From IMG/VR virus record IMGVR_UViG_3300034073_001667, positions 1-55,314 of that record: a stretch of DNA of 55,314 bases, one strand, 5' to 3'. Origin of the DNA: a virus. Its lineage: Duplodnaviria > Caudoviricetes. The translations under genes were made by a program, and so were the position numbers. This document shows positions 1-39,600 of this stretch, in pieces. The notes below the pieces were generated by a model. That model was not told the DNA's origin. It saw only the letters and a list, made by a program, of their open reading frames with translations, and did not search any database. Numbering within the stretch: the first letter of the stretch is position 1; each line of letters starts with the position of its first letter.

Positions 1-2317
1 CTTCCGCCTCTTGCTCGGCTCCCTGACGAACTCCAGATTCAATTTGCTGTTCTTTGATTCCGTAGTCTCCCTGAAGCTTGGCGAGCTGCATCTTTAGAGC
101 GTACTCTACCTTCAGAAGCTCAGCCTTAGCCGTTGCCTCCAGCTGGATGCGTTGTTGTTCGAGCTGGGCCTTCATCTGCTCTTCTTGCATCTTGGATTGC
201 GAAGTTACCTGAGCAACCTGTGCATTGGCCTGTGCTTGGAACTGTGAGTTCTGCTGTGCCTGCTCCTGACGCATCTTCATACGCTTCTTACGGCGTACAA
301 TCAGCAGGCGCTCGGCCTGATCAATGTCACGCAGCTGACGGATGGCAATCGCATCCTCGATGTCAAGCTCACCCTGAGCGATAGACGCTTGGATGTTCTG
401 CTCAAGGTACATACGGTCCACCTCGTTCATATCTGCAACGACACGCACCCCGAAGTTGTACATCGGTAGGTTAGAGAAGCTAGACAAAACAGCCATATTC
501 TCGCGTCCAATCGCCGTCTCGTACGCCTTGTATAGGATGGACTTGGGCGGAAGGATTTGCAGACACTTGACGATGTCCTCACAGATTTTGCGGTAGAGAA
601 CAACAGATGCGTTGGTGATGTCGTACAGTGCGTTGTTCGCTGCAGCGAGCTGCTGCTGACGTACTCCAACAAGCTGGTCTCCCTTCGGAGACGTTCCGTC
701 CATCACCTCGTTGATTCCTGTAGCGTCACGAATCATACGCAGGTAGTGGTTGTACAGCGTGATGAGTTCGTTGATGTTTCGGATGCTGTTGTCCAGTGGA
801 CGAATGGGTGGGTTCTGGAAGCTTCCGTCTGGGTTCTTTGAGCGGTAGTAGAAGATACCAGTCTGCTCGTAGATGTCTTGGATGTCAAGAGGCTGAAGCT
901 CTCCACCGCGACCGAGCTGTACGTTCTCTAGTCCCTCGATGTCTACAATCAATCCATCGGGCTTGGCCTTAGCAATTGCCTGCTGAATCTTTAGGTGGGA
1001 CAGCTGAAGCTGATCGGCGAAGCCAATGATTCCACTCACCATAGACTTAGGAATCATACGGCGGATGTTGGTAGCCATCACGCTGTAGCTCATCTTCGTA
1101 CGGCTGAGGTCGTGTACGTTCTTAGGTATATTTTTCTTTACCCCGTAGTCGAAGATGTACTCGGTGCCAATGATGAACTTACCTCCGTAGAGCGTTTGGT
1201 TCTGCATATATACAGCCTCTCGGTCGTATACACTCTGCTGTGGTGCGTTGTACTTGTGGCCTTTGTAGTAGAACCCTACATTGCCAAAGCGAGACTCCTT
1301 CTTCTCGAAGATGATGTTGTCAACGCTTATGAACTCAAACTCCATCACGTCGATGGTGTACTCGTCGTATCCGTAGTAGTATCGCTCCATACCCACGTCG
1401 TAGCGCTGGTCCATAAAGCGACCAGAGTCGTTACCAAAGCGGTTCATCACCGTACGTGCCATTGTTTCGTACTGCTCTTCGGTAAACTCATCTCCTGCAA
1501 TGCGCTTGAGTTCGGCAATGCTCATCCGCTTGGTGTGGCCTGCGTAGATGATGTCGCTGAAGGTGGGGTCGTCGGTGAAGCTGTGGACGAAGTATGCTGG
1601 GTCAACGTACTCCTCTACGATTCCGTAGTTCGGGTCGTTGCTGCGCTTGGTGACAGCCATACCACAGGTGACGAGGTCCTCAACGTTGCGACGGAACACA
1701 CGCTCGTCAAAGTCGTTCCAGCTGAGGGTGAGGTTGATTCCAATCTGTGCGGCAATCTCTGCTGCGGTCTTGATGTTGGTCTCAAGAAAGATTTCGGTTT
1801 CCTCTGCGGTGTCTGGAAGTGCGTCTGGGTCTACCTCAGTACGTAACCCTGTTTCTTTGGCTTCCTTGAGTACGTCCTTGTTTTCGATGAACACCTTCAT
1901 CTTGTTCTTCTCGTAGTCCTTCTCACTGCGAGAGAGAGGATCAACAGCTTCTACGTTGGGGTAGAACTTGGATGAGAGAATCTTGTTTACTACAATCTTT
2001 ACAAACTTAGGAACAATGGGTACTGGTGTCCAGTCAAGGTTTACCAGTGAGCCGTCTCCGTTGTTTGGGTCAAGGGATGTGAGGATTTGTTTGTAGATGG
2101 ATGTGTCCTGCGTTCCGTTGGCGTAGTCACGTGAAATCTCAAATTCCTTCCAGCGTTTGCCGTATAGAGAGCCCTCCCACTCGGCGCTTCCCCATTGTCC
2201 GTAGATGGCCTTAGCGTACTGAAGGCCGTATCCTTTGTTTGCCTTTACCTCGTGTGAGGCAAGCGGATCAGGAAACGTAGAGTCGTACCCGTTGCTTTTT
2301 ACTGAGTATTGATCCAT
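1..2317 (-). CDS. Portal protein (3' end runs off window)
   Basis: Absent from the ORF track because there is no stop in the window. ATG at 2317: MDQYSVKSNGYDSTFPDPLASH...NLDWTPVPIVPKFVKIVVNKI, >770 codons. Follows terminase; motif typical of portals in this phage type; Q-rich coiled-coil end. Confidence 0.85.
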   Translation of the reverse strand, partial: MDQYSVKSNGYDSTFPDPLASHEVKANKGYGLQYAKAIYGQWGSAEWEGSLYGKRWKEFEISRDYANGTQDTSIYKQILTSLDPNNGDGSLVNLDWTPVPIVPKFVKIVVNKILSSKFYPNVEAVDPLSRSEKDYEKNKMKVFIENKDVLKEAKETGLRTEVDPDALPDTAEETEIFLETNIKTAAEIAAQIGINLTLSWNDFDERVFRRNVEDLVTCGMAVTKRSNDPNYGIVEEYVDPAYFVHSFTDDPTFSDIIYAGHTKRMSIAELKRIAGDEFTEEQYETMARTVMNRFGNDSGRFMDQRYDVGMERYYYGYDEYTIDVMEFEFISVDNIIFEKKESRFGNVGFYYKGHKYNAPQQSVYDREAVYMQNQTLYGGKFIIGTEYIFDYGVKKNIPKNVHDLSRTKMSYSVMATNIRRMIPKSMVSGIIGFADQLQLSHLKIQQAIAKAKPDGLIVDIEGLENVQLGRGGELQPLDIQDIYEQTGIFYYRSKNPDGSFQNPPIRPLDNSIRNINELITLYNHYLRMIRDATGINEVMDGTSPKGDQLVGVRQQQLAAANNALYDITNASVVLYRKICEDIVKCLQILPPKSILYKAYETAIGRENMAVLSSFSNLPMYNFGVRVVADMNEVDRMYLEQNIQASIAQGELDIEDAIAIRQLRDIDQAERLLIVRRKKRMKMRQEQAQQNSQFQAQANAQVAQVTSQSKMQEEQMKAQLEQQRIQLEATAKAELLKVEYALKMQLAKLQGDYGIKEQQIESGVRQGAEQEAE

Positions 2318-2334
2318 TTATCGCAGTTTATGGA

Positions 2335-2342
2335 CAAAGGTA
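2335..2342 (-). promoter_or_regulatory. Bacteroidota -7 promoter element (TACCTTTG) for portal
   Basis: Matches TAnnTTTG; 17 nt upstream of the ATG. Confidence 0.6.
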
Positions 2343-2352
2343 CGAACTTAAG

Positions 2353-4464
2353 TTATCGCGTAATTTGCTTACCCTTACGGAAGAAAATCTTCTCGTTGAA
2401 GTTTGTTTTCTTTGCTTCCTTTACCTGCTTTTGTGCGCCCAAAAGTGCAAGTCCAGAGCTGATTGTTAAGTCAAACTTTGTTCGGTCGTCAATCTTAAAG
2501 TTAATCCAATCCTCCAGTGTTCTGTTGAAGTACATCCTTCCAAAGTTTCCTGTCTCGTTGTGAATGCCAACGTGGTCGTGGATGTATGCCTCAATCGCTT
2601 GGGCGTGTGCTTGGATTACGTCTTGGCTGTTGGATGGGATACCTTTTGTCTTTACGTTGACCTTCGCCGATGTGGACATTAGATGCGCTGGGCGGTCCAT
2701 CAGGTACTCGTCGTACCCTCGCGACTCAAAGTATCGTGCAATGCCGTACTTGTTGTTCTCTATAAGCACAGGATACCCGTAGAAGACAGCAGCCATTAGG
2801 ATGTCCTCGTAGAAAATTTTAGCAAGCGGTGGACGTGATGCGTATTCAGCCACAAACATATTCGCTGGATGCTCCATCGAGAACTTGTTGTAGATGTGGC
2901 AGGCACCCTTAGAGGATCTGTAGTCAATTGTAGTGTCAAGGTCGTAGGAGTCAACGCCCATCACCCCGAATGCCGAGTTTGGCGGAACTAGCTTGTTGTT
3001 TTCGGTCTTTCGTTTGTTTCGAATCTCTGGTGGCGCTAGCCAAGTGATTCTCCACCTTCCGTTAGGGTCTGGTGCAAAGACAACCTCTGTGTCCTGCTTG
3101 CCCTCCTTCCACTGGAAGTTTCCAACGATAACAGGATTAGGGAACAGCTCCTCGTTGTGCTGAATCTGTTCGTAGATTTTTTGGATGTTGAACAGCGAAG
3201 ACTTGGTCGAATCACGAAACGCTTCGTCCTCAGTGAATGGGAACTGACGAATGATTTCGTTGAGTTCGTAGCTGTTGTTTTGCTGTCCCTTTCTCTCGTT
3301 TTTCAAGAAGGTGCGTGCACCGATTGTAGTGAACGTTCCGTCCTCGGTCATCACTGGATCTTCGGGGTCGTCAACGATTGGCATTCCGTACTGATCAAAG
3401 AATCCTTCTAGTGCCTCGTACGCGGGGATGAAGATTTTGTACAGGCCGCTCTTGGTGCGTCCGTTGTCGTTGCGGTCGTTTGGGTCCGAGTCGTAGTACA
3501 GGTCGCGGAACTCTCTTCCTCCCTTGTCAAGTGGGTTCACGGTAGAGCCAACCATCGCCTTGCCAATCACGCGGCGTCCAACCAATAGACAGGTTCTGTG
3601 GATTCGCCACACCTCACGTATGTCGTTAGGGTTTAGCCACTTACCAGCCTCGTCTAGGAACAGCATATGCGTCTTGCTTCCGTCGTATGCGTTGTTGGTG
3701 GTATTCTTCCAGTTGATGATGGTGTCAAGCGCTTCTCCCCTTTGTGAGGTTTTGTTCTTCTTGGTAATACGCTTGGCAGGTTCACGAAACGCAAGCTCCA
3801 TACGTGGGTTGGTCGTACCATCCTGAATTGCTGTAAAGAAGAATGGGTAGCCCTTGTATATGGGTACAATCTTAGAGCCGAACACTGCCTCCTGAGCGTC
3901 CGTACCTGTCTTGCTCATAATACCCAACAGCTTCTCCTTCACCTGAGTACCTTCGTCAACTAATGTGGCAGCGCTCATATTGGTGTAGCCAGAGCGTCGG
4001 CACTTGGTGTATATCTGTCCTAGGCAACGAGGGTCTGCCTCACACGCAGCGAAGTGGGTGAACAGTTTTCTCTGGAAGTCTAGGTAGCCCGGATATCCGA
4101 TGTCAATCTTGCTCCACTGGAGGAACATATAGTGGTGGCCAGTGATGTATGTTTCAACACCATTATTCATAAACCACACACCTTCTCTACGTCGGCGGAA
4201 CTCCTCCTCGATGTACGGGCTCCAACGTTGCTGGAACTCGCGTGGTGATTCGTACCAGTCGTCCATAGATTTGATTTGGGACAGCTCTCGTGGCAGTTCC
4301 ATTCTTTGCCACCTTTGGTTCACCACTGGTAAACCTTTGAATAGAACGTCTTGTGGCTTGGGCAACTGAATCTTCAGCGACTCAATCTCAATGATAGGCC
4401 CGTCCGAATCGTTCGGACAGATGCTGATCACCTCATCTCCGTCTATCATCTTAAGCCCTGCCAT
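2353..4464 (-). CDS. terL: Terminase large subunit
   Basis: 703 aa; Walker A-like TKCRRSGYT, Walker B LFLDEAGKW, coupling motif GSTVN, nuclease motif GVDSYD. Confidence 0.93.
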   Translation of the reverse strand: MAGLKMIDGDEVISICPNDSDGPIIEIESLKIQLPKPQDVLFKGLPVVNQRWQRMELPRELSQIKSMDDWYESPREFQQRWSPYIEEEFRRRREGVWFMNNGVETYITGHHYMFLQWSKIDIGYPGYLDFQRKLFTHFAACEADPRCLGQIYTKCRRSGYTNMSAATLVDEGTQVKEKLLGIMSKTGTDAQEAVFGSKIVPIYKGYPFFFTAIQDGTTNPRMELAFREPAKRITKKNKTSQRGEALDTIINWKNTTNNAYDGSKTHMLFLDEAGKWLNPNDIREVWRIHRTCLLVGRRVIGKAMVGSTVNPLDKGGREFRDLYYDSDPNDRNDNGRTKSGLYKIFIPAYEALEGFFDQYGMPIVDDPEDPVMTEDGTFTTIGARTFLKNERKGQQNNSYELNEIIRQFPFTEDEAFRDSTKSSLFNIQKIYEQIQHNEELFPNPVIVGNFQWKEGKQDTEVVFAPDPNGRWRITWLAPPEIRNKRKTENNKLVPPNSAFGVMGVDSYDLDTTIDYRSSKGACHIYNKFSMEHPANMFVAEYASRPPLAKIFYEDILMAAVFYGYPVLIENNKYGIARYFESRGYDEYLMDRPAHLMSTSAKVNVKTKGIPSNSQDVIQAHAQAIEAYIHDHVGIHNETGNFGRMYFNRTLEDWINFKIDDRTKFDLTISSGLALLGAQKQVKEAKKTNFNEKIFFRKGKQITR

Positions 4465-4763
4465 TACCTGCGGGCGTTACGTTCTGCAAAGCCTCCCTTG
4501 AAGTCCTTCTCCTCCTCAATACCACCAGACTCCTCAAGGTCGCCAACCAGCTGTTCAAGTTTTTGTCGTTCAACGATTAACTCCTTGCAGGCCAAGGCCG
4601 TATCCTTTAGCGCAGAAAGTTCGGCTTTTCTTGCTGAGCCAGTAAGGTCTGGGTCAACAGGCTTCTTCAGCTCCTCGGTCATATTGTGGATGGCGGCCTC
4701 CATAGCCTCGATGAGGTTACGTGCCGCCTGAACGGTGGTAAAGCCCTTTACACTTTTGCGCAT
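4464..4763 (-). CDS. Probable terminase small subunit
   Basis: Helical ~99 aa protein coupled directly upstream of terL; ends KGGFAERNARR. ATG 4763 preferred over 4790. Confidence 0.55.
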   Translation of the reverse strand: MRKSVKGFTTVQAARNLIEAMEAAIHNMTEELKKPVDPDLTGSARKAELSALKDTALACKELIVERQKLEQLVGDLEESGGIEEEKDFKGGFAERNARR

Positions 4764-9370: not shown

Positions 9371-9841
9371 CTATTTATAGGGTTTGTATTTTGTCTTACC
9401 AGCAGCGTCACGGTATGCGATAAGGATTTGCTTTCTGTTCGCTCCTTTACGGTATCCTACGTGTACCCAATCGAAATCACCATCTGCACGCTGGAATTCT
9501 CCGATGCATTGATCGAATTCAAGATTGTTGATGATGTAGTTAAAAACATCTTTGTTACGCACACCATTGCCGTGACCATCTTGATCCAAGTCCAACGCAC
9601 GTCCGTTGTTATGGTCAGAGGTGGCACTACCGCCAATCGCCTTGTTCAACGCAGCAGAGCGGTACCCACTAGAGATGTAGATTGGAACACCAAAGTGCTC
9701 ACGCACCTTGTCGAACACCTCATCACAGATCACCTTCAGGTTCTCCAGATGTTCTGCTGTTGGACTATTGTCAATCCCCTTGCGCTTGGCAGTATCACTC
9801 CGTGTTACCTCAGCCAACGATACGTACTTACTTAACTTCAT
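9371..9841 (-). CDS. Endolysin, peptidase M15 family
   Basis: SSGYRS..LN..IGGS.TSDH..G.ALD..WVHVGY zinc-peptidase motifs. TATCTTTG at 9846-9853. Confidence 0.88.
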   Translation of the reverse strand: MKLSKYVSLAEVTRSDTAKRKGIDNSPTAEHLENLKVICDEVFDKVREHFGVPIYISSGYRSAALNKAIGGSATSDHNNGRALDLDQDGHGNGVRNKDVFNYIINNLEFDQCIGEFQRADGDFDWVHVGYRKGANRKQILIAYRDAAGKTKYKPYK

Positions 9842-9999
9842 ATGGCAAAGATAGTAACAGCAATAATAGCTGTATTTGATAGCTGTTTCACTTATTTATG
9901 GCTCCGTAAGTAGAAATCGCATTAAGTGTGTACTGTAACACTTATACATTATTGACTGCAACTGCTTGATAAACAATTATGAACAAACATACTCTTATA

Positions 10000-10031
10000 T
10001 TTGCTTATTAACTTTTTCATTTGTAACTTCG
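10000..10031 (+). promoter_or_regulatory. Promoter TTTG-N20-TAACTTCG
   Basis: Bacteroidota -33/-7 spacing; no credible ORF downstream. Confidence 0.55.
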
Positions 10032-10724
10032 CTAAGGCTAGAGCCGATAGACAGAACGCAGACTAACTAAGCTCTCTTATCATCGAGAGCCTACTTAGCC
10101 TACCAAACAAAGCAGGGGCGGCGCCTCAAGCAGAGCCCCCACCCCACCGCCGATAGCAAACAAAACTCAAGCTCCTAGGGTCCGCTCAGCTACCTAGAAT
10201 ACAGGCGCACTATACCCTAACCATAGCTGTTCAAATCATAACAGCAATCTAGTTGGCTCTAATAGTTTTTTCTTTTTTAGAATAGCCAACTTGTATCTGG
10301 TGGCTGCAAATAAGTATCTAGCGTTAGATATAAGTACCTAGGGGATTATATACATAATCGATCGTTCGCGCGCGCGTACGGAAACCGATCCCCAGACGTA
10401 TGGGGTTGCGTTTGACAGCATTTCGTTCGTAGGTTTCAGCGTTTTACCCACGTGACTCTCGTGATGAACTGACTGATTTTGCTGAGGGTTTTGAGTTGAG
10501 TTCCTAGAGAAAAGGAGGAACAATCCCCCCCCCACTTCACCCATTTCTCCCACTATCTCCCACCCTTGCCCACGTGCTATGCACACTTGCACACGTGCTC
10601 ACGTACGTGCGTGTGTGTGTACGTGCGCGCATTATGCGCGTGCGCGAGCCAAAGGAATTCGGTTAGCTTTATCCATCATTTTGAGCAATGGATATAAAGT
10701 TTCGTTCAATTTGCGGTTTGCCTA

Positions 10725-10754
10725 TTGTGGGTTCGTTTCGGCTAACTACATTCG
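10725..10754 (+). promoter_or_regulatory. Early promoter TTG-N19-TACATTCG
   Basis: Precedes the first early gene at 10782. Confidence 0.55.
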
Positions 10755-10781
10755 CAGTGTTAACCACTTAAAACAATTGCT

Positions 10782-11096
10782 ATGACACCTTCATCACTTT
10801 ACAACACCCCCTCACTCGGAGACTTCATTAAGAGCACCTACGGCGAGATACCTTCGGTCGAGGTTTTGACTGAGCAGGTAGAGAACAACGTACGCCGCCT
10901 TGCTGAACTTGAGGCACGTGTTCCGAACTTCCTTAAGGAAAAAGAATTCGCCTTCGTTGACTTGCGTCGTGAGGTTATCACCTTGCAAGACATTGAGGAC
11001 TACGAGTACGACACTGCTGACGTGAACTACCACTGCAAACGTGCGAACGAACTTCTCACTGAGGTTGAGCAACGTGCGACTAAGTTAGGCTACTAA
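10782..11096 (+). CDS. Early hypothetical protein
   Basis: First plus-strand ORF; A-rich leader; helical. Confidence 0.75.
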   Translation: MTPSSLYNTPSLGDFIKSTYGEIPSVEVLTEQVENNVRRLAELEARVPNFLKEKEFAFVDLRREVITLQDIEDYEYDTADVNYHCKRANELLTEVEQRATKLGY

Positions 11097-11128
11097 AAAA
11101 ATTAATCAACCGAAAAAACTGTTCTGCT

Positions 11129-11308
11129 ATGAAAACTGAAAATATCTATGGAATCGTCGAGTCTCAGATTGAGTTGCTGTTTGACTCAGTGTGCGAAGAG
11201 TTCAACCTTGAGTCGGGCGATATTTCGCCTGAACTTCAGGTGAGGTTAGATAAGTGTGTTGAGGAACTTGAGGCCATCGTCGAGGGGTTCATCAACCTAA
11301 ACAAGTAG
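11129..11308 (+). CDS. Early acidic hypothetical protein (59 aa)
   Basis: MKTENIYGIVESQIELLFDSVCEEFNLESGDISPELQVRLDKCVEELEAIVEGFINLNK; below the ORF-track cutoff. Confidence 0.7.
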   Translation: MKTENIYGIVESQIELLFDSVCEEFNLESGDISPELQVRLDKCVEELEAIVEGFINLNK

Positions 11309-11313
11309 GTGCT

Positions 11314-11511
11314 ATGAAAGTGCATACGTATTCCTTTGGGGGTCTTGAAATCAGGGTTTGCTACCATCGTGATGCCGAAGGTGCGCTGAAGTGGGCTGTA
11401 AGTTCTCCTGAGTTCGATGTGTGTGAATATACTGACGAACTATGGGCAACGAAGGGTGAGGCGGTAGATGCGGGAATGTATGCCGCGAAGAGGTTAACTG
11501 ATGAGTCCTAG
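11314..11511 (+). CDS. Early hypothetical protein
   Basis: 65 aa; its stop codon lies in the hammerhead stem II loop. Confidence 0.7.
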   Translation: MKVHTYSFGGLEIRVCYHRDAEGALKWAVSSPEFDVCEYTDELWATKGEAVDAGMYAAKRLTDES

Positions 11512-11541
11512 GTGGACGAAACGTCGCGAGACGTCTTAACC
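11492..11541 (+). ncRNA. Hammerhead ribozyme, type I
   Basis: GGTTAA-CTGATGA-GTCC-taggt-GGAC-GAAA-CGTC-gcga-GACG-TC-TTAACC. Full catalytic core, three perfect stems, GUC cleavage triplet (cut after C11535). Confidence 0.93.
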
Positions 11542-11558
11542 ATAAAACAATCGAAACT

Positions 11559-11762
11559 ATGAACAATTCAATTGAAAGCATCATCGCATACGAGAACGGA
11601 GAGCTCACTGATCAGGAGGTAGTGTACTTCTTTGCCGAACTAGTTAAGAGTGGTCTGGCTTGGAATCTTCAGGGCCACTACGGACGGACTGCGAGTGCGC
11701 TGATTGACCACGGACTTATTGACGAGCAAGGAAACGTTTCTCTTGCTGTTCTAGAACTTTAA
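11559..11762 (+). CDS. Conserved early phage protein
   Basis: IIAYENGEL..LVKSGLAWNLQGHYGRTA..LI motif, recurrent in phage early regions. Confidence 0.75.
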   Translation: MNNSIESIIAYENGELTDQEVVYFFAELVKSGLAWNLQGHYGRTASALIDHGLIDEQGNVSLAVLEL

Positions 11763-11785
11763 TAAACGCCAACGAAATCTAACCT

Positions 11786-11995
11786 ATGAAAACTTATCAA
11801 TTCATCGTGACTGTGAGCAACAGCACCATCGTCGAAGTTCAATCTGAAAACTACGAGGAGGCCGTCGGACTTGCTCTGAAGGAGTTCCACGAGAGTGAGG
11901 TCATCCACGACCTATGCGACCCACGCTCTATGGGTGTGGACATTGAGCTCGAAGAGGAGTTTGATGGTGAGGTACCAGAAATGTATCCACTTTGA
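11786..11995 (+). CDS. Early acidic hypothetical protein
   Basis: MKTYQFIVTV..VEVQSENYEEAV. Confidence 0.7.
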   Translation: MKTYQFIVTVSNSTIVEVQSENYEEAVGLALKEFHESEVIHDLCDPRSMGVDIELEEEFDGEVPEMYPL

Positions 11996-12069
11996 CCGAA
12001 AATGTGTTTTGCCGAACAAACAATTCTTTTAACCTTTGACTAACCAACGAAATAATTAAAACTATGAAA
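11993..12069 (+). repeat. Promoter/leader repeat, copy 1
   Basis: TGACCGAAAATGTGTTTTGCC..AATTCTTTTAACCTTTGA..AACCAAC..AATTAAA..ATGAAA; near-duplicate at 12534. Confidence 0.75.
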
Positions 12070-12219
12070 CAATTAGAATCAGGAGCGGCATCGCTCAAGG
12101 TGGAGCTAACCCACGGAGAAATCGTGGTATACCACGGAACGGACGGTACTTTGCTGTTTACCCGCCCTGCCTTCGAGGGAGATTGGAGCAAACTTTTTAA
12201 TCAACTTAAAAACAACTAA
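12064..12219 (+). CDS. Early hypothetical protein (51 aa)
   Basis: MKQLESGAASLKVELTHGEIVVYHGTDGTLLFTRPAFEGDWSKLFNQLKNN. Confidence 0.65.
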   Translation: MKQLESGAASLKVELTHGEIVVYHGTDGTLLFTRPAFEGDWSKLFNQLKNN

Positions 12220-12225
12220 GAAACT

Positions 12226-12540
12226 ATGGAACGCTTTAACAAATATCAATTCACTGCCGACCTAGAGGCAGAACTTCTAGAGGCTGTAAACAACGACCAG
12301 ATTAGTGAGCTCGAAGAGGTCTTCGACTGGATGCATCAATCAATCGAGAACGCTATTATCTATGCGGCGGACTGCTTCGAAATCATTCGGGAACTTCACT
12401 TCACGAACTTCAAGGATAGCGACTTTGAGATCACTGACATCTACCAGGCCGCCTATGCCGCCTTGTACGAGTACGCCAACGAAAACATTGACCTAAGTGA
12501 TGTCGAGGAAGCGATTAAAAACAAGATAGAAAATGACTGA
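12226..12540 (+). CDS. Ocr (T7 gp0.3)-like DNA-mimic anti-restriction protein
   Basis: 104 aa, very acidic. ELLEAVNNDQISELEEVFDWMHQSIENAIIYAADCFEII..FKDSD..AALYE aligns by eye with the recalled Ocr sequence. Confidence 0.65.
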   Translation: MERFNKYQFTADLEAELLEAVNNDQISELEEVFDWMHQSIENAIIYAADCFEIIRELHFTNFKDSDFEITDIYQAAYAALYEYANENIDLSDVEEAIKNKIEND

Positions 12541-12611
12541 AAATGGGTTTGCCTATCTAAGTAATTCTTTTAACCTTTGAAAAACCAACAAAACAATTAA
12601 ACACAATGAAA
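12534..12611 (+). repeat. Promoter/leader repeat, copy 2
   Basis: TGACTGAAAATGGGTTTGCC..AATTCTTTTAACCTTTGA..AACCAAC..AATTAAA..ATGAAA. Confidence 0.75.
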
Positions 12612-12986
12612 AACACAATGAGCCTTTTAGAAGCCGTAGAATTCCTAGTAGGACTTCAGGACGGTGAGAACGACCAACTTGCTCAGGCAATAGATGTAGT
12701 CGTTGGCGGACTTAAGTTTGGCCACGAGGAATTCAATCAGGTGGAACTACCTTCCTTAGCCTGGACTGCGGAAGACTTTGATAACCACGTTGAGGGACTA
12801 TACGACCTAGGAAAGATTGACGAGTCAACAGCAAAGAAACTTATGGCCTATCGTGAGTCTGAAAAGCTAGGTATTGTCTCGAACGCAATCGAAGATATCG
12901 AGGACTCAATTATGGAGAAAATAAATGATAGCATTTTCTATCGTGTTCGTCTAGAAGCTAACCAAGTAAAAAATCAAAACCAATGA
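12606..12986 (+). CDS. Early acidic hypothetical protein
   Basis: 126 aa, follows the repeated promoter. Confidence 0.75.
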   Translation: MKNTMSLLEAVEFLVGLQDGENDQLAQAIDVVVGGLKFGHEEFNQVELPSLAWTAEDFDNHVEGLYDLGKIDESTAKKLMAYRESEKLGIVSNAIEDIEDSIMEKINDSIFYRVRLEANQVKNQNQ

Positions 12987-13180
12987 GCACCCCATTATAC
13001 ATTGAAGCCTTCACCACTATTGATGAGTGTGTGTACTACCTCACTGAAAAGCTTGGCCTTAAGTGGGACTATGAGAAAGAGAAATCTTTGACGAGCAAAA
13101 TGTACTACGAACACAAGGACACCCTGGTGCTGTACGATCCCGCTCGAATCATCGCCGACTACGATCACGAACTGAATTAA
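12983..13180 (+). CDS. Hypothetical protein
   Basis: ATGA-coupled, 65 aa. Confidence 0.65.
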   Translation: MSTPLYIEAFTTIDECVYYLTEKLGLKWDYEKEKSLTSKMYYEHKDTLVLYDPARIIADYDHELN

Positions 13181-13202
13181 TCTAACCTAAAAAATCAAAG
13201 CA

Positions 13203-13751
13203 ATGCCTAATTGGATGAGAACAGCCCTCGAAGTATCGGGCGATCAGAAACTACAGCAAGAATTCTTTGCCGCCATCGGCAACGGAATCGGGTCAGAACA
13301 GCCAATCGATTTCGAGAAGCTGATACCACCACCTGCGAATATCTTCAGGGGTAACTTCGGAGAGACAGAGCGAGTGTACTGCGAGGAGAACAACCTACCG
13401 AATTGGTACGATTGGAACCGCGAGAACTGGGGGACCAAGTGGAACGCGGCCTACGGAGAGCTTCGCCCTTCGAAGCAAGGAGACAGCACAGTGCTGTTCT
13501 TTGACACCGCGTGGAGCTTGCCTATGCCTATCCTCGAGAAGATTGAGGAGATGCTGATGAACGAGTTCCTTGGCCTTGAAATCTACGGAGAGTTCATTGA
13601 GGAGGGCTACGCAGTTGCGGGAGTTATCCTGATGGGTAAGGACGGCGGAGATATCCGCGAGATAGACATCGACTTCGACCAAGAGTCAGACCAACCAAAG
13701 ATTAACTTCTTTGATCAGGACGGAACAGAATTTAAATTTAAAAACCTTTAA
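13203..13751 (+). CDS. DUF1281/YubB-like ferredoxin-fold protein
   Basis: MPNW start; WYDWNRENWGTKWNA and FDTAWS.P.PI motifs. Confidence 0.8.
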   Translation: MPNWMRTALEVSGDQKLQQEFFAAIGNGIGSEQPIDFEKLIPPPANIFRGNFGETERVYCEENNLPNWYDWNRENWGTKWNAAYGELRPSKQGDSTVLFFDTAWSLPMPILEKIEEMLMNEFLGLEIYGEFIEEGYAVAGVILMGKDGGDIREIDIDFDQESDQPKINFFDQDGTEFKFKNL

Positions 13752-13754
13752 GCT

Positions 13755-13949
13755 ATGAAATCTTTCTTCGGGCAAATCTTCACTCCACTGCGCCAACCAA
13801 AGGTGCGCATTGACTACACAAACGGTGTGTTCATCCTGGTTGATGAGTCAGACCAAAGCTTGGGCTACGAGTTCAAGAACTTCAACGAGGCGTTCCGCTT
13901 CGCTAAGACGATGGGCTATGAGTTCAGTGATAACGACTACTTCATCTGA
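13755..13949 (+). CDS. Hypothetical protein
   Basis: 64 aa in operon context. Confidence 0.65.
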   Translation: MKSFFGQIFTPLRQPKVRIDYTNGVFILVDESDQSLGYEFKNFNEAFRFAKTMGYEFSDNDYFI

Positions 13950-13950
13950 T

Positions 13951-14100
13951 ATGGGGTTCATCGTTTCATACAACCCAGACAGCGAAACCTTCGACGTACT
14001 ACAGCAGAATCCGTTTCGACTTGTTCGTTCCTTCACCTACGAGGAGGAAGCCTTCAACTACGCCAAACAATTAGAATCTATTAAACAGCAAAAGAAATGA
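13951..14100 (+). CDS. Hypothetical protein (49 aa)
   Basis: MGFIVSYNPDSETFDVLQQNPFRLVRSFTYEEEAFNYAKQLESIKQQKK; ATG 13951 preferred over 13810. Confidence 0.6.
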   Translation: MGFIVSYNPDSETFDVLQQNPFRLVRSFTYEEEAFNYAKQLESIKQQKK

Positions 14101-14702
14101 AAGACTACAGCGACAACCCTATCGAGACACGACTTCAGAACTGCACTGAGTGCGGACACGAGTTCGATCAGGACAACGACTACTACGAGTACAACGCCAA
14201 GGATGAAATCATCTGCAGTGACTGCTACTCTTCGCACTGGGATAGTGCGGTGAGCGTATACGAGTACGACCCAGAATTTGAATCTGTTGATCACATTCAG
14301 TACTCATACACACTGAATAAGACACGTAGTCTAGAGACATACGATGAGTTCGAAGAGTTGCCTAAGTGTATTAAGAGTGCCGGGTGGAAAAAGATAGATG
14401 GATGGAGAGGATACGTGGATGTAGAGATTGCCGATGGCTTCACCTGCGTTGCCGAAGGATGGTCTACTGATATGTACGATGATGTCAAGTGGAAGTGGGA
14501 CTTCAACGAGTTCGTTGACAAGGTACACTCAGGAGAACTTGTACCGCCAGTCGAGACATTCTTCATCTTCGCTCAGACGAGCAACGTATTTTCTACTGCC
14601 GCACAGCTTGTGGTACGTACGCACCAAGAGAACACATTCCTGAACTGGTTGGCTGATCAGGCAGGGCTTACTAAAGAACAACTTCAAAACGCATTAAAAT
14701 GA
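14097..14702 (+). CDS. Hypothetical protein with N-terminal Zn finger
   Basis: CTEC..CSDC, 201 aa. Confidence 0.75.
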   Translation: MKDYSDNPIETRLQNCTECGHEFDQDNDYYEYNAKDEIICSDCYSSHWDSAVSVYEYDPEFESVDHIQYSYTLNKTRSLETYDEFEELPKCIKSAGWKKIDGWRGYVDVEIADGFTCVAEGWSTDMYDDVKWKWDFNEFVDKVHSGELVPPVETFFIFAQTSNVFSTAAQLVVRTHQENTFLNWLADQAGLTKEQLQNALK

Positions 14703-21763: not shown

Positions 21764-22101
21764 TGGAAATAACTTATTGGGAGGCTATACCTGAGCCCAA
21801 GTATGGCTATAGAATGGTTGAGGTATGGGATGACTCCATAAGTGAACTAAATGCTGTATTTAAATGCACTGGTTGTGATACGCCAAACGATGGAAAAGTC
21901 GGACACGGATCTGCTGGCGAATGCTATTGGTGTGGTAAATTAGGTTATTGGCATTTAGTATCTATTGAGGTAGACGGCGAATACCTTAGGTATAGGAATG
22001 CAATTGCATTACTTAAAAGGAAAAAGTTAATATACCGCGAAAAGGAAAAGGTAATTGAATCAATAGATTATACATTTAAACCAATCCAAACAGAACAATG
22101 A
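21763..22101 (+). CDS. AT-rich hypothetical Zn-finger protein
   Basis: CTGC..CYWC; start ATG 21763. Confidence 0.6.
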   Translation: MEITYWEAIPEPKYGYRMVEVWDDSISELNAVFKCTGCDTPNDGKVGHGSAGECYWCGKLGYWHLVSIEVDGEYLRYRNAIALLKRKKLIYREKEKVIESIDYTFKPIQTEQ

Positions 22102-33277: not shown

Positions 33278-33690
33278 TACTTAAAACGATATAGAAACAT
33301 CATCAGGACAAGTGCCCCTCCTAAAAACAAAAGTAAATAATTCTTTACCTTTTCTGTTTTACCCTCAGGCTGAACAAGTTGCGGAGGGCACTCAGCTTGT
33401 ACGCTCACTGGGACCTCGACCTCCTTAATCTGAGTCTTCACTATCATCTTGTCTTGAAACTTTGTGATGACAATACGCACGGTGTCGTTTTCAATCACCG
33501 AGGAATCGCCTTCAGTAGGCACGCTGACGGTGTCAACCAAATACACTGGTGGTGTCACAATCGTGTCCCATATCGTAACAACCGTGGGCTTCAAGATGGA
33601 AGGGTCCTTCTTGGCTGCTTGATTCAGGTGCCAAGTTGCGCTGCAGCCAGTAAGTAATCCAGCTACTAATAGGGTCGATATGTGTTTCAT
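33277..33690 (-). CDS. Putative unimolecular spanin
   Basis: N-terminal lipobox LLTG|C, beta-rich middle, C-terminal TM helix. Confidence 0.65.
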   Translation of the reverse strand: MKHISTLLVAGLLTGCSATWHLNQAAKKDPSILKPTVVTIWDTIVTPPVYLVDTVSVPTEGDSSVIENDTVRIVITKFQDKMIVKTQIKEVEVPVSVQAECPPQLVQPEGKTEKVKNYLLLFLGGALVLMMFLYRFK

Positions 33691-36600
33691 TAGAGTTCAT
33701 TTATTTTATAGTTTTCATATGCTTTCTGGAACTTAGCTAGTTGTGCGTAGCGCATACGCTCCAATTCTAATAACCTATCCTCCTTAGTGTTTTCATCCTT
33801 AATGTTTTCTGCGGCCTTCTCCATCTTTCTGATATTGCGAAGAGCCGCGTCTACAGACTTAGATACCACATACATAGAGCGAACCTTTGATGCGTCCTTA
33901 GGCTCTAGTTTGTTTGACTTAGCCTCGTCCATAAACTGATTGACCTCAATGCGCCTATCAAAGTAAGACTGAAGGTCTACAAACTTGCGGGGCTGTCCAT
34001 AGAATACACGAGCAAAGGGAACTTGATTTGATTCCATCTGATCCCAATTACCAGTCACAAGATTACCAACAGATTCTGTAGTGCGCAATCCAAATCGTCC
34101 TGCACCACCGCTAAGCGTCTCAAGTACAAAGTCAATCTTATCAGGATTGATGTCAACGATTCCACTCCTAAACTCAGATCCACCAGTCAATTTATTAAGC
34201 TGCTTAGCAATCCAAACACTTTGAGGTGTAGCACCCTTACGACCTAGTTCTGACTCTGGCTTAGGTGTTGGGTCAGTTGGGAAGTTCTCATTGTAAATCG
34301 TGCGCCCGAAGTAGTCTTCGTTAAGCGCAAGGGACAACGGAATCTGTCCAATTGTTGGCGTAACAAACTTGATGAGCCAAGAGGATAAGTCCTCGCTAGA
34401 TGGGAAGTTAATCGGTGAGAACGAACCAATGGCGGCCTCAAAGATGTTTGATGCAACCTCGCCCACAGACTTGATTCCCTGTCCTGCATCAGCCATTGCA
34501 TTTCCTGCAACGTAAAAGACGTTAAGACCATATGGAAGAGGAATCTTAACATAGTCCTTTCCGTTTGGAGCCATAATGATTATGTTACGCTCCTTTTCAA
34601 AGTCTGGAATCTTAGAGTAGAATGACTTGTCATCCTCATCGTCATCACTAATAAGTTCGTTGATGACTGACATAATGCTTCCAGCCACAAACATTGAGAT
34701 AGCAATCTTCTGTGCGTTGGTAACCTGAAGCGAACGAGTTCCGTCGTCGTTCTTCTTGAATTGAGGCTTAAGGCTTCGAACCAAGCGAGATGTGCCCTGA
34801 ACAGACGCGTTGAAGAACAGATACAAAGAGTTAGCAACGGGACCAATTGATCCGCTCTTATTGAAGTTAACAGTCAAGCCCTTCGCTAGCTCTGCTGCCT
34901 TTTCTCTTGCTAGACCTGCCTTTCGAGACTCAATGTATGCAGCTAAACGAACACCATTCTCTACAGATGTGTTGATGCGCTCGACAAAGTTTCCAGCAGC
35001 CTGAAGAGCACCATCGCCCTTGCCGCTCATAAGTTTGTCTACATCCTTACGGAGTTCATCCACAGACTTGCTGTAGAACCACTCCGTCTTAGCACCATCT
35101 TCAATAAATTCGCTGTAGTAACGCTCAAACTCATTGGTCGCCTGAGCATCTTTACCAGACATCTTAAAGATTGCCTTGATTGAAGGGAATACAGACTTTA
35201 CAATCTTACTAGTAATGTTCTTGCCTTTAAGTATACCACCCTCAATCTCTTGTTCGCTCACAGCATTAACAACAGCAACCTGAATGTCTCGAGAGAAGTT
35301 GCGAAGTACAAACTCAGGGTCGTACGTAGTGATGAATGAACTCAATAATCGGTTGAATCTACCCAATGACTGCACTAGGAAGTCTGCCTTTACCACATTC
35401 GTACCACGAAGTGCCTCCGCAAGTTTAGGGTCTGCAAACTGAACAAACTTATATTCGCCATCAATACGAACAGCAAAATTTCTGTCGTCAAGTACGTAGT
35501 CCGATATCGTCTTTGCTACATCCTTGATTCCTTTTGTTGTAGCCTTCTTCTTGTACTCCTTGTTTACAGATGGGTCAATAACCTTCCAAATGTCATCGTT
35601 GGGGTTTTCCTTGGCAAGTTTGTACAACTTCTGAGCAACCTCATTCTTACGAGCACGAATAATCGTAGATTGATTCTGAGCAACAGCATTTAAGAATGGA
35701 GAGTCCGCCTTAGACTTACGGCCCATTGCACGCTTCTCCCGCCCGCGAACCTCAAGCCCACGACCTCCACCAATTATCTCACTTGCTGAATCCTCTCCCT
35801 CAAACCCACGTAGTGGTACGTAGTATTTATACGTATCCTCAAAAGCAAGTAGGGTATCAAATGTTTCAAGACCAAAGTCAAACATACGACTACGTGTGTC
35901 TGCGATGATTTCTTGCGTTCCCTTTACTGCATCGCGAAGTGCAGGTTTTAGGGAGTTTATGTTTGGATTGTATGAGTCGAGCCCATATGAGTTAAGAATC
36001 GCTTGAGCCTCAGCATCGGTCATACCAGAGCCAGCATTCTCTCGGGTGTACTGAGTGAAGAATTGGTTTGGAGTGAGCCCGTATATTGATAGTATATCGT
36101 TCAACTCCTTTGTGCTGATACCTCCCTTTGCTGTTCCTGCCTCTAGCTCTCGATAAGTTTCTAGGTCTATGCCAGCTAACTGAGCAGCCTCTGATGGCTT
36201 TAGATTGTTCTTCTTGCGTAGGTCAGTAATAGATTCTGCAATATCAGTACGCTGTACTCGGATGTATCTGTTACGCTCTTGAGCGTGGAGAGCATAAAGA
36301 AGATTATCAAACTCTTCAAGAGTTACTCCTGCTTTCTTGACACTAGCAACGACATCCTCTGCTTTCTTCGTTGACTCTGCAATGTCATTCGCTGCCTTTC
36401 CGTGCATCAAAACCTCAGCATTACGGAAGTCTTGGTCAAGACCTACTGGCTTACCAGTTGAATACTCAACATCTTCCTGAAGCTGTATTACACCATAAAG
36501 TCGGTCCTGAATTGCAATACGAGCAAGGTCAGTATAGCGCTCCATAGGAGTTCTGTCTCGCTGCTGCCAAGACTTAGAGTCCGCTAGTTGGTCCTCAATG

Positions 36601-39600
36601 TCGTAGTTTATCTGTGAGGCTTGGAACCCAAGCTGCACTTTCTCTTTCGATGAGCTGTCTAATAGTTCATCGTATGGCTTGTTTGCCCGACGAGAAGATG
36701 ACTCTGATAGTTCTGAGTCTAGAGCGTTATTACGCTCATCAAGAATTTCTAAGGCTTGGTTGAGAAGCTTAAGCGCACCTTCCCTTCCATCTCCTTCGTA
36801 GCGTTTGGAATCCCGCGCTTCTTGAAGAATTCGTCCATAATAGTCCTCGGACTCTCTGTCTGAGTTGGGGAACTTGATTTCTGCTTCATAGTACTTGATT
36901 GATTTTTCATCGATTAGGTTGTTTTCTTGAGCAAATGTAAGTAGATTATCTAAATTATCACGCAACTGATCCATAGAAATTTCTTCGCTAGGAATCATTG
37001 CAAGGCTAAATGACTTGTCAGATACCACATACGTGAATCCACCACCAAATCCGTAATCGTTAAGTGCGTTGATAATTTGCTTTGCAGATGCGTCGCTCTT
37101 AGCGTTAAATGTTACCTCACTTCCTTCTGCTCCAGACTTGTATTCCACAAGCATAACTCCGTTTTGGAAGTCTTCCTTCTTTACGGGTGCCATAATACCA
37201 GCAACGGCAGACATAGCAAGGATGTCTTCCTTGTTGCCAGCAATAGCAGGGCGCATTGATACCTCCTGAGTAACAGAGTTTAACTCGGAGTCGTACCAGC
37301 CGCCAATAGTCTTTTCGATTCCGTATACTTGAACATCGAACTTTTTTGCGATGTCCCTAAATCCCTTAACAAAGCGCTCAAATGATGGCCTCTTATACTC
37401 ATCGCGAGCCTCAGATATCTCGTTAACGTACTTAGCACGATATGGGGCAATGCCTACAATAGACTTGACAATATTGTTGTTAATCTCAAGGTTGTTTGCT
37501 GATGCACCACCAGTAACGACAGCACGTGCAGCACGAATCTTAATTCGCTTCTTAAGCTCTGGGTCGCCCTTCTCTTCAGCCATCTTAGAACGATAATCGC
37601 CAAAGACATTTCGTACGTCTACAAACTCATTAAGAATCTTTAGGTCCTTGAATCCAGTGATAATCCAAGGGTATGCAGGGTGAACCTTAGCGCCTTCAAT
37701 TGTACGAGAATCTTTGACCTCCACCTTCTTTGGGTCAAACTCAAGGACAGCAACAATGTCACCGTACTGCGCATTCGCAAGCAGGGGCTCATTGACGTAG
37801 TCTAAGATAGTTTCAATTCTAGGCAAACCAAATCGCTTGTTGGCCTCTGCAGAAAACAGAGCCTCATTGAACTCTGCACGAACTTCATATCCAACCTTCT
37901 TTGGACCATCGTTTGGCATAAGGTTCTTAAGTTCGGACAGCTTCTTGATTTGAAGTGGCAAACCTTTCTCCTCTAGCGCTGACTGAATTGGTTTTTTCTT
38001 TAACTTGGAGTTGATATACTCAACAAGTTCAGCCTCAGTAGCACGCTTGTCCTTAACAGCCTTATTAACCTCCTCAAGCATATAGCCCCAGAACTGGAAG
38101 TTGCCACGGATTCCACGGCTGTCCTGAGACATAAGCAATACTCGTCCATCAAACTTCTTGAGCTTGCTCAATATCTTCTTTGCTGTTTTTTCGTCGGTGA
38201 ATGCCCAACCTCCTTCTCCGAGGAGCGGGTAAAATACGCCGCCATCAAACGTATATGCAACACCTGTTGGTGACTTTATAATACCAGTAACAGCAAGGTC
38301 CATAGCGTACGTTATAGCAGGTTTGCCAACGTACTCCGAAAGGTCAGCGTACTTAATTTTATTCTTATCAAAGGTGCGCTCCACATAGGATGCATCCTTT
38401 CCTTGTCTAGACTTAGATTCTTGAATCTGTGGGATTGCATTGACTACTTCAGACTCTAATCCAGTGTATGTTTGGTCGTCAATTACTGACTCGAACAAAG
38501 CACCAGAGAACGAGTTCATAAAGTCGATAAACTCACCACGGCTGTTGATCTTAAGACTTGGTGCAATCTTACCAATAAAGTTGTTAAGCCACTGGATAAG
38601 CTTGTCCATTGTAGACTTGCTGATTCTCTCTCCAGATGTAGATATGAATCCAGCAACCTGAGCCATAAACTCCTCTGGCGTTTCTTTCGCTGTATACTCA
38701 CCTGCTTTAACAAATGATTCAGCGGCATCAGCCAACAATTGGTCCTGCTCTGATCCGTTACGAAGTATTTTTAATAACCCTGAGTAGAAATCCTCTGCTG
38801 ATTTTTGACGAGCCTTCTGACTTCCTTTCGCAAAACGATTTACAAAAGCTGCGTGGAATACTTCGTGAAAAGGAACAACAGCATCCATATCTTCAAGGTT
38901 GATGTGGATTTCATTTCGTGAAGGAATGAATCGTCCACTCTCTACGCCAGCTTCATCAAGGCTGGCCTTAGATACTGCACTAACGTTTTCGTTATATTCT
39001 TTTCTGCTGTTGTGAGTGATGATGGTAACAGGAAGCCCAAGACGCTTTGCTAAGCGATCAGCTTGAGATACAGCTTCTGTGACTTCAGCCTCACTTAAGT
39101 TTTTTCTGTTCTTAGGTTTCTCTTCCTTGATTGTTTCAACTACCTCTTCCTCTACAGCTTCAGTCGGAAGAACAACCCTAGCCCCTCTTCTCTCTGGTCG
39201 CTCAGCAACTGGAACACGCTCTTTAGTTGTAACATCACGAGTAACAGTTTCGTACTCCTGCATCCAGATTACTTCTGGTACATCTCCGATTTCCTTTTTG
39301 CGTGCATCAATGGCGATATCTAACGCAAGTTCTGGACGATTTACTACCTCGACGCGTAGTGGGGAAATGTCTTGGCCCTTTGGCGTCTTTGGACGCATAA
39401 CAACTCCTGTAACGTTCCCAGCGTCGTCAAGGATTGACTCCACATACTCAAGACCCAAGATATTGTCAGCAACTTTTGGCTGTCGTCCAACCTCTTGCTT
39501 TGTGGTCTTATCATATGTTACAACATCAATCGATCCATCGTCTTGTGTCTCAATTACAGATGTTTGGTTGTCTGCCTCAGTTCCTACAGCGACCTCAAGA

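Follow-up and report, generated by a model that had tools for sequence, protein, structure and literature searches.

What does a self-cleaving RNA motif lodged between two small genes do for the phage that carries it? We investigated this question for the viral record IMGVR_UViG_3300034073_001667, a linear sequence with an estimated completeness of 91% that was analyzed over its whole length of 55,314 bases (hereafter, the window). At positions 11492–11541 of the + strand, the window encompasses a 50-nucleotide (nt) element which, judged by its sequence, its fold and the covariation among its relatives, is a genuine hammerhead ribozyme. The element is located on the sense strand between two + strand open reading frames (ORFs), and we consider it probable that it splits a polycistronic transcript, freeing a short, unstructured leader without a Shine-Dalgarno motif for the downstream gene, which encodes a protein of the DUF7417 family.

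The original prediction for this stretch had called a complete type I hammerhead with a CUGAUGA/GAAA core, a GUC cleavage site and three perfect stems, and each of these elements was confirmed base by base, with the motif reading, the Rfam alignment, the predicted fold and a dedicated descriptor all delimiting the same 50 nt. The 5’ strand of stem I (GGUUAA, 11492–11497) lies within the last codons of the upstream ORF and forms 6 Watson-Crick pairs with the 3’ strand (UUAACC, 11536–11541), which would constitute the first 6 nt of the 3’ cleavage product. The catalytic core C3–A9 (CUGAUGA, 11498–11504) agrees with the Rfam consensus and is followed by stem II with its loop (11505–11517), consisting of 4 base pairs (bp; 11505–11508 paired with 11514–11517) and the 5-nt loop II UAGGU (11509–11513), then by the core bases G12, A13 and A14 (GAA, 11518–11520) and by stem III (11521–11534), which has 5 bp counted from A15.1–U16.1 (11521–11525 paired with 11530–11534), is closed by a GCGA loop and shows strong covariation in relatives. 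The predicted cleavage site, positioned from the hammerhead consensus as set out in the available text of Perreault et al. 2011 (PMC3088659), falls between C17 (11535) and U1.1 (11536). When the methods list of that paper is used to define the class, all the required core bases are present, namely, C3 U4 G5 A6 N7 G8 A9, G12 A13 A14, A15.1–U16.1 and an H17 that is not G. The core-adjacent pairs are standard as well (10.1–11.1 G-C, 1.1–2.1 U-A, 15.1–16.1 A-U), and the stems comprise 6, 4 and 5 perfect pairs. Because stem I is the open stem, whereas stems II and III are closed by loops, the topology is that of type I. Stem I is directly flanked on its 5’ side (11491) and on its 3’ side (11542) by an unpaired A that is conserved across copies. 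The minimum-free-energy structure computed with RNAfold is the hammerhead, both for 81 nt and within a 241-nt context. The end of the feature had originally been placed at 11561, which only extends the ribozyme, ending at 11541, to the ATG of the following gene.

We then asked how readily such a motif would be expected to appear in a sequence of this composition, using a descriptor of our own that specifies the core, the three stems and H17, with 300 first-order Markov shuffles of the window as the background. With loose stems, the single match in the window compares with 0.017 matches per shuffled window, and with stems of at least 6, 4 and 5 pairs, none of the 300 shuffled windows contained a match; across both strands of the whole window, the descriptor identified this one copy. 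The Rfam model RF00163 (Hammerhead_1) aligned with the element from end to end (positions 1–45 of 45) at 28.4 bits (E of 3e-5 on 251 nt and 5.5e-4 on 4.4 kb), which is below its gathering score of 34 bits, so that a default Rfam scan of the window lists nothing. The second hammerhead model, RF03152 (RAGATH-1 hammerhead), gave 21.9 bits versus a gathering score of 56.3. The comparison with hammerhead covariance models that had been proposed along with the original prediction is, in this sense, divided, with the full-length alignment of RF00163 and its E of 3e-5 on 251 nt on one side and a score short of the threshold on the other. This shortfall reflects the seed of the model, not the ribozyme class. 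In 15 related loci scanned, no hammerhead family reached its Rfam gathering score, even though these loci hold several dozen copies of the subclass described below. A low-threshold Rfam scan of 9800–14200 for other ribozyme classes returned the hammerhead and one weak match to a small RNA only.

Searching viral contigs with the two flanking proteins yielded 20 loci for the downstream protein and one for the upstream protein. Hammerheads were found in four of the 20 loci, with two copies in L002, one in L003, one or two in L004 (by the descriptor or by the covariance model R1 introduced below, respectively) and two identical copies in L011; the stem sequences differ among these loci while pairing is maintained. 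The sole close relative is L002, where the matching copy has the same stems II and III as the window and differs only at the free position N7. A blastn search with 2 kb around the site found no match among cultured phages, and a blastn search with the 77-nt element returned 6 weak partial matches (E ~2), none of them usable, because the motif is too short and too variable for this approach.

Pattern searches revealed a far larger set of copies. A first scan of viral contigs, in which the stem I sequence of the window was fixed, produced at least 120 stretches; of the 120 listed, the strict descriptor recognizes a complete hammerhead in 107, and R1 matches at least 8 of the remaining 13. The concern that such bare patterns match by chance is thus largely unfounded for viral contigs. 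It is justified for bacterial genomes, where 15 of the 26 pattern matches are complete hammerheads and 11 are stretches without a complete one. A second scan, fixing only the core and the loop II skeleton, returned at least 153 distinct sites, and 151 of the 153 listed are complete hammerheads. In 150 of these 151, stem I has exactly 6 bp; many different stem I sequences occur, with pairing fully maintained, and GGUUAA is the commonest version (41 of the 151 listed). The impression from the first scan that GGUUAA is conserved family-wide was accordingly rejected as an artefact of the first pattern. Altogether, 143 distinct complete copies were collected; this total, like the counts out of 143, 118, 111 and 103 given below, refers to the matches listed.

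From 17 length-matched copies, including that of the window, we built the covariance model R1, which scores the window’s element at 74.7 bits as one of its own 17 training rows. With R1 and filters off, the next best match in the window has 11.6 bits (E 0.85), and the model found at least 128 matches in 98 sources among the matches listed. In the resulting alignment of 116 distinct rows, designated A3, the 15 pairs of the structure are standard in 99.7% of 1715 cells, and two-sided changes are seen in 11 of them, amounting to 383 cells. The alignment reaches a covariation score of 0.579, compared with 0.121 in shuffles, none of 500 shuffles reaching 0.579; in a control in which the partners were slid by 1–3 columns, pairing falls to 21.5–43.6%. 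All three stems are backed by covariation. These values come from material that leans towards structure, given that both collections used patterns fixing parts of the motif (including the 5’ half of the R1 alignment) and that A3 was fitted to R1, but the effect is far larger than model fit and pattern bias can account for. That the motif is a random match with no RNA function is, in our assessment, vanishingly improbable. Such a reading could appeal to the score below the Rfam threshold and to an unremarkable folding energy, which is on par with that of shuffled sequence (z of −0.6 for 81 nt and −0.5 for 241 nt), but it would have to accommodate the rates of 0.017 per shuffled window with loose stems and none in 300 with strict ones, the massive covariation in 116 distinct relatives, and the fact that both the A residues beside stem I and the distance to the ATG are conserved.

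The collected copies conform to a rigid format. The unpaired A directly 5’ of stem I is present in 139 of the 143 copies and in 148 of 150 copies from the scan that did not fix stem I, and the one directly 3’ of stem I in 136 of 143 and 150 of 150, respectively. A 4-bp stem II is shared by 128 of 143 copies, and the 5-nt loop II follows the pattern U-N-A-N-U (first U in 111 of 111, middle A in 97 and last U in 98). Stem III is free in length (14–66 nt), and position H17 is occupied by C in 109 copies and by A in the other 34. The unpaired A residues next to stem I, whose length is fixed, and the conserved positions of loop II resemble a tertiary contact between stem I and loop II, which hammerheads require to cleave fast at cellular Mg2+ and for which these bases would be candidate partners; they are strongly conserved, with no covariation among them. 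A separate feature of the subclass is that, in approximately 20–21 of the 143 copies (for example, in L048, L050, L053, L081 and L157), stem III takes the form of a GC-rich hairpin with a U run behind it, similar to an intrinsic terminator, and in these copies the ribozyme and the terminator may be one structure. In the literature, we found no description of this format, of the 17–28-nt spacing to the next gene reported below or of a link to phages of Bacteroidota, with the proviso that the supplementary alignments of PMC3088659 may list members.

The window departs from the format at one base, the middle position of loop II, which is G as in 9 of 111 copies and as in the matching copy of L002. 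If this base makes a tertiary contact, the window copy could cleave slowly. A more radical version of this concern would hold that the element is a hammerhead by descent, slow or inactive, and acts only as a structured RNA, for example as a 3’ stabilizer of the upstream message or as a barrier to ribosomes. Along with the minority G, this version could invoke the presence of a single copy in the phage and the state of Flavobacterium phage elemoE_10-3D, in which 2 of the 4 stem II pairs are broken whereas the sister phage elemoA_7-9A has an intact element, which implies that decay does occur. A relic, however, would be expected to gather changes in the core, whereas the core bases and core-adjacent pairs of the window are all intact, and L002 preserves stems II and III with a change at the free N7 only. 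We consider a purely structural role to be decidedly unlikely.

The upstream ORF (11314–11511, +), encoding 65 amino acids (aa), belongs to no known family and shares its last 6 codons and the stop codon with the ribozyme; its one relative, with 92% identity, is in L022, on the same contig as L002. The downstream gene (11559–11762, +) encodes a 67-aa protein that matches DUF7417 (PF24192, 82 bits) and phrog_3908, and accounts for the 20 related loci. A cut after 11535 would leave a 23-nt leader ahead of this gene (11536–11558, +), as had been proposed, and the coordinates are correct in that the next ATG lies 23 nt past the predicted cut; the leader is A-rich and lacks a Shine-Dalgarno motif. 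The same arrangement recurs throughout the subclass. The next ORF of at least 40 codons begins 17–28 nt past the cut in 109 of the 143 copies (median 22), and among the listed copies of the second scan, 80 of 151 fall in this range (median 25). Every one of the 118 starts located within 40 nt of the cut is ATG, the leaders are 51% A and 26% U, and a Shine-Dalgarno-like 4-mer occurs in only 18 of 118.

On the other side of the cut, an ORF of at least 40 codons runs into the ribozyme in 70 of the 143 copies, and these ORFs end predominantly in its 5’ portion: the stop is the UAA of stem I in 36, the core UGA or an earlier codon in 23 and a codon of loop II in 8, with one further ORF reaching stem III and two running past the ribozyme. 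In the window, the stop codon is the UAG at 11509–11511, which does lie in loop II as originally noted, and which represents a minority version of the more general arrangement, in which the upstream gene ends within the first half of the ribozyme, before the cut. Loop II opens with an in-frame stop triplet in 77 of the 143 copies, largely because of the U-N-A composition of the loop, and we regard the loop II stop codon of the window as incidental. Selection on this stop codon was considered and rejected, given that only 8 of the 70 incoming ORFs end in loop II. With 24 nt between the stop codon and the predicted cut, the upstream ORF would remain intact. We also observed that, in the subclass, up to three reading frames are closed to translation ahead of the cut, by means of the core UGA in all copies, a UAA in stem I of the GGUUAA and GAUUAA versions, and the loop II triplet in 77 of 143 copies, so that a ribosome would rarely reach the cleaved end. 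The footprint of a ribosome positioned at the UAG at 11509 would keep stems I and II open. Terminating ribosomes might be coupled to the ribozyme, as raised in the original prediction, but the loop II position specifically is not conserved.

The two genes belong to a run of tightly packed genes (10782–13751), all on the + strand, that begins after a 940-nt non-coding divergent region, and the ribozyme follows the third small ORF of this run, which starts at 10782. Within 10782–11559, no terminator-like site was detected on the + strand. Scans for sigma-70 promoters and for terminators performed no better than on shuffles. The promoter consensus of Bacteroidota consists of TTTG, a gap and TAnnTTTG; the window has 0 matches to it versus 1.03 expected, which is uninformative on promoters. 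The designation of this run as an early operon is a reasonable inference from gene order alone.

Based on these observations, we propose the following sequence of events. Once transcribed, the 50 nt would fold into the three-stem junction, and the RNA would cut itself between C11535 and U11536. The upstream piece would then contain the whole upstream ORF, with the body of the ribozyme forming a structured 3’ end that carries a 2’,3’-cyclic phosphate. The weak, AU-rich, 6-bp stem I would melt, releasing a downstream piece with a 5’-OH and a single-stranded, A-rich 23-nt leader in front of the DUF7417 gene. A likely consequence is that translation and stability of the downstream gene become independent of the upstream gene. 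The motif, the covariation, the conserved unpaired bases and the fixed placement before start codons are present in the genomes as described. From these, we infer that the two genes are co-transcribed, that cleavage would occur in vivo, and that it would affect translation or stability.

Several results weigh against this interpretation. In addition to the sub-threshold Rfam score, the unremarkable folding energy, the lean of both collections towards structure and the minority base in loop II, these concern distribution and expression. The downstream gene has a homologue in 20 loci; a hammerhead is found immediately before that homologue only in L002, and anywhere in the 6-kb locus in 4. The synteny expected in relatives is thus retained in L002 and absent at that place from the other 19 loci. 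The genome has only one copy, so hammerhead processing is not a general need of the operon. Among the sequencing runs listed, none recorded as RNA contains the region; two runs guessed to be RNA contain a small share of its sequence words. What stands of the transcript-processing role put forward in the original prediction is supported by the covariation, the co-orientation with both genes and the ATG 17–28 nt past the cut in 109 of 143 copies, whereas the link to a stop codon in loop II, a minority arrangement (8 of 70), does not extend to the subclass.

A stronger version of the splitting hypothesis deserves mention as a tentative and, at present, somewhat doubtful proposal. Under this version, the window copy would be a member of a large type I subclass in phages of Bacteroidota, missed by current models, in which each self-cut creates a 5’-terminal, unstructured, A-rich leader of about 20–25 nt that is needed for efficient initiation without Shine-Dalgarno pairing, the ribozymes doubling as junctions for gene exchange. 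If so, the subclass would represent a ‘one gene, one message’ device in which cleavage turns on the gene behind it, as is the case with the hammerheads of fungal RNA viruses according to the available text of Lopez-Galiano et al. 2026 (PMC13725137).

Relatives also contain arrays of copies, and an association with gene exchange comes from comparisons among related sequences. At least two copies are present in 24 of the 103 loci, and tandem co-oriented copies are spaced by 179–1730 nt (40 spacings). One array, in L164 (a short contig of a metagenome-assembled genome, MAG; 534–4571), has 9 copies within 5.8 kb, every one of them preceding a small gene. Further arrays with one hammerhead per small gene were noted in L169, L177, L086 and L087, among which L086 has 5 copies in ~1.7 kb, and their leaders are nearly identical. 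One comparison is with L002, the closest relative. Window positions 11310–11562 match L002 2444–2696, and window positions 11533–12985 match L002 2975–4426, such that L002 carries, at the ribozyme/leader junction of the window, an extra cassette of ~278 nt (2697–2974) consisting of an 80-aa ORF and a second hammerhead. This indel is flanked by a ~30-nt duplication that runs from the end of stem III through the 3’ strand of stem I and the leader to the ATG. In a comparison with metagenome contigs, made at the level of DNA, contigs lose their match to the window at 11491, at 11521/11522 and at 11536/11542, that is, at the edges of the ribozyme elements, and those that diverge after 11521/11522 have a different but self-complementary stem III; in one run, depth rises ~2.5-fold across the ribozyme. 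These patterns suggest, without proving it, that the ribozymes delimit gene cassettes that can be exchanged.

One could go further and assign to the ribozyme, as its main evolutionary role, that of a shared boundary of exchangeable units, each composed of a leader, a small ORF and a hammerhead. Recombination at the near-identical ribozyme and leader sequences would add, delete or swap small genes, and cleavage would keep the cassettes expressible; this alternative is compatible with transcript splitting. The extra unit of L002, located at exactly the ribozyme position and bounded by the ~30-nt duplication, fits this scenario, and so do the contig break points at the element edges, the ~2.5-fold rise in depth in one run and the variable identity of the genes that follow hammerheads, which is seen here and in the available text of PMC3088659. 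Nevertheless, the shared identity of ~13–30 nt is short for homologous recombination, stems II and III are not the same in all copies, evidence from a single indel and a handful of contig break points is anecdotal, and mosaic junctions of phages are often intergenic regardless of content. As the primary role of the element, boundary marking therefore appears unlikely to us.

Tandem copies also evoke a different kind of product. Two hammerheads could excise a unit-length RNA whose ends are then ligated to give a circular molecule, as happens with viroid-like RNAs and retrozymes. Relatives with co-oriented copies 179–1730 nt apart and the identical stem I of some pairs (L002, L011) would be in line with this scheme, and the possibility was raised by Perreault et al. 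(PMC3088659, available text). The same authors, however, sought circular or spliced products and, as far as that text goes, found none. Moreover, the scheme requires two bracketing ribozymes, whereas the window has a single copy (next best match 11.6 bits, E 0.85), leaving nothing that could be excised. For the window, we therefore rate a circular RNA as highly improbable and retain the splitting of a linear transcript as the preferred interpretation.

What kind of virus carries this element, and in which hosts? The minus strand of the window encodes a portal, a large terminase, virion proteins and an endolysin, and the + strand, from 10782 onwards, encodes ~12 small ORFs of unassigned function followed by genes for Erf, an exonuclease, a methyltransferase, a primase-helicase and ribonucleotide reductase. 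The portal, terminase, endolysin and replication genes identify the virus as a tailed phage. Among cultured or named phages, the terminase matches 117 records, including 68 from phages of Flavobacterium and 15 from phages of Cellulophaga; other matches are to phages of Tenacibaculum, Maribacter and Azobacteroides and to uncultured and crAss-like phages. In bacterial sequences, three complete hammerheads reside on contigs longer than 100 kb, all from Bacteroidota, namely, Agriterribacter, a Sphingobacteriales bacterium and the complete chromosome of Paraflavitalea speifideaquila. Short MAG contigs carry various host labels (Aliivibrio, Polynucleobacter, Streptomycetaceae and others), which were set aside, as these contigs are possibly mis-binned phage. 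Bacteroidota are not known to rely on Shine-Dalgarno pairing to initiate translation. The terminase matches, the carriers on long contigs and the leaders without Shine-Dalgarno motifs together point to hosts in Bacteroidota.

Running R1 on eight named phage records revealed unannotated copies in four, all on the minus strand. The best scoring is that of Cellulophaga phage phi19:3 (KC821608.1, 21769–21817; 57.9 bits), where the stem I UAA terminates the annotated gp051 and the cut precedes the start of gp050 by 34 nt. Flavobacterium phage elemoA_7-9A (NC_055852.1, 17290–17347; 47.7 bits) has intact stems and a 28-nt leader, and Cellulophaga phage phi18:3 has a copy at 21904–21958 of NC_021794.1 (42.9 bits). 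In Flavobacterium phage elemoE_10-3D (MT497078.1, 27095–27152; 36.2 bits), the copy with the broken stem II, a + strand ORF (phanotate41) is annotated over the element. The other four records, MW202828.1, Maribacter phage Panino, Cellulophaga phage phi38:1 and Calle_1, gave no match with R1. Standard Rfam annotation misses elements of the subclass, and gene callers may place spurious ORFs over them.

Other features of the window and of the relatives were also noted. A yAACC motif, followed by an A-rich tract, precedes the ATG by 16–19 nt in 9–10 of the first 11 + strand genes (10760–13810), the 3’ strand of stem I being one instance, and is mostly missing from later genes; it might indicate a transcript 5’ end or a site of processing, or else act in translation. 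A 68-nt direct repeat with 78% identity (11993–12060 and 12534–12601) is located directly upstream of the genes at 12064 and 12606, contains TTTTAACCTTTGA and an AACCAAC leader motif, is also present in L002, and may be a repeated promoter or regulatory cassette. The 940 nt at 9842–10781, between the divergent lysis/structural and replication-side clusters, have no convincing ORFs and an odd composition, featuring 9 consecutive C, GC-rich blocks and recurring words similar to CACGTGC, and are likely a control or origin region. On the minus strand, we noted a 1619-aa virion protein (43825–48684) with a crAss muzzle C-terminal domain and a 2623-aa protein (33690–41561) with the LPD38 domain of large polyvalent proteins and a weak helix-turn-helix match. 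Finally, a viral contig with three hammerheads contains a match to the DUF805b RNA (RF02914; L113 250–282, minus strand) above the Rfam gathering score.

Taken alone, the window copy is one more example of a phage hammerhead, and the value of the analysis lies in the definition of an abundant and poorly annotated subclass, characterized by a rigid format, a fixed distance to the start codon, leaders without Shine-Dalgarno motifs and arrays with one ribozyme per gene. The cultured phage-host pairs that carry unannotated copies make the long-open question of function testable. How, then, does this subclass relate to known systems? Early mRNA of phage T7 is processed by RNase III between cistrons, and RiboJ is a synthetic ribozyme insulator. 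As in the proposed mechanism, a cut between cistrons or before a start codon provides a defined leader independent of the upstream sequence. The T7 system, however, depends on a protein enzyme of the host and yields other end chemistry, whereas RiboJ is engineered, and neither constitutes a family to which the window element would belong. The Rfam families RF00163 and RF03152 share the core and the stem order with the window element, but the RF03152 consensus includes an additional 5’ hairpin and a stem II of only 1 bp, in contrast to the 4-bp stem II of the window.

The closest precedent is the survey of Perreault et al. (2011, PMC3088659), which, in its available text, reports hundreds of bacterial hammerheads, many of them near prophage genes and grouped around single genes or short blocks of varying identity, and proposes that they process long phage transcripts into gene-length mRNAs. 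Three tandem prophage arrangements cleaved during in vitro transcription in that study, and the set from Agrobacterium also cleaved in vivo after cloning. The processing role suggested for the window is therefore the standard hypothesis, published in 2011, and the window copy is a new example rather than a new kind. It shares with those elements the canonical core, the location between co-oriented phage genes of varying identity, the tandem arrays (seen here in relatives) and the proposed role in cutting transcripts. The available text of PMC3088659 stresses type II and pseudoknot contacts, whereas the window copy is of type I, with a rigid 6-bp stem I between unpaired A residues, a 4-bp stem II and a U-N-A-N-U loop; the tight spacing to the ATG was not found stated in that text, and its supplementary alignments may include members of the subclass. 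A 2019 review (PMC6765202) still describes, in the part available, the function of bacterial and phage hammerheads as open.

Two further systems resemble the window element in their position relative to a start codon. The HHphage variant of haloviruses HF1 and HF2, as described in the available text of PMC3088659, is separated by 13 nt from the start codon of the early gene that follows, whose transcript has a 5’ end mapped no more than 3 nt from the cut, and is thus comparable to the window copy with its 23 nt; it is, however, a core variant that requires very high Mg2+ and occurs in viruses of archaeal hosts, whereas the window copy has a standard core. The hammerheads in the 5’ untranslated regions of chrysoviruses and fusariviruses, which, according to the available text of Lopez-Galiano et al. 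2026 (PMC13725137), must self-cleave for translation to initiate, are likewise of type I, with a long stem III, and lie directly upstream of an ORF. Those elements function in eukaryotic RNA viruses, in cap-independent translation and without the usual loop-loop contacts, whereas the window element belongs to a bacterial DNA phage, where it lies shortly before the gene that its predicted cleavage would set free.

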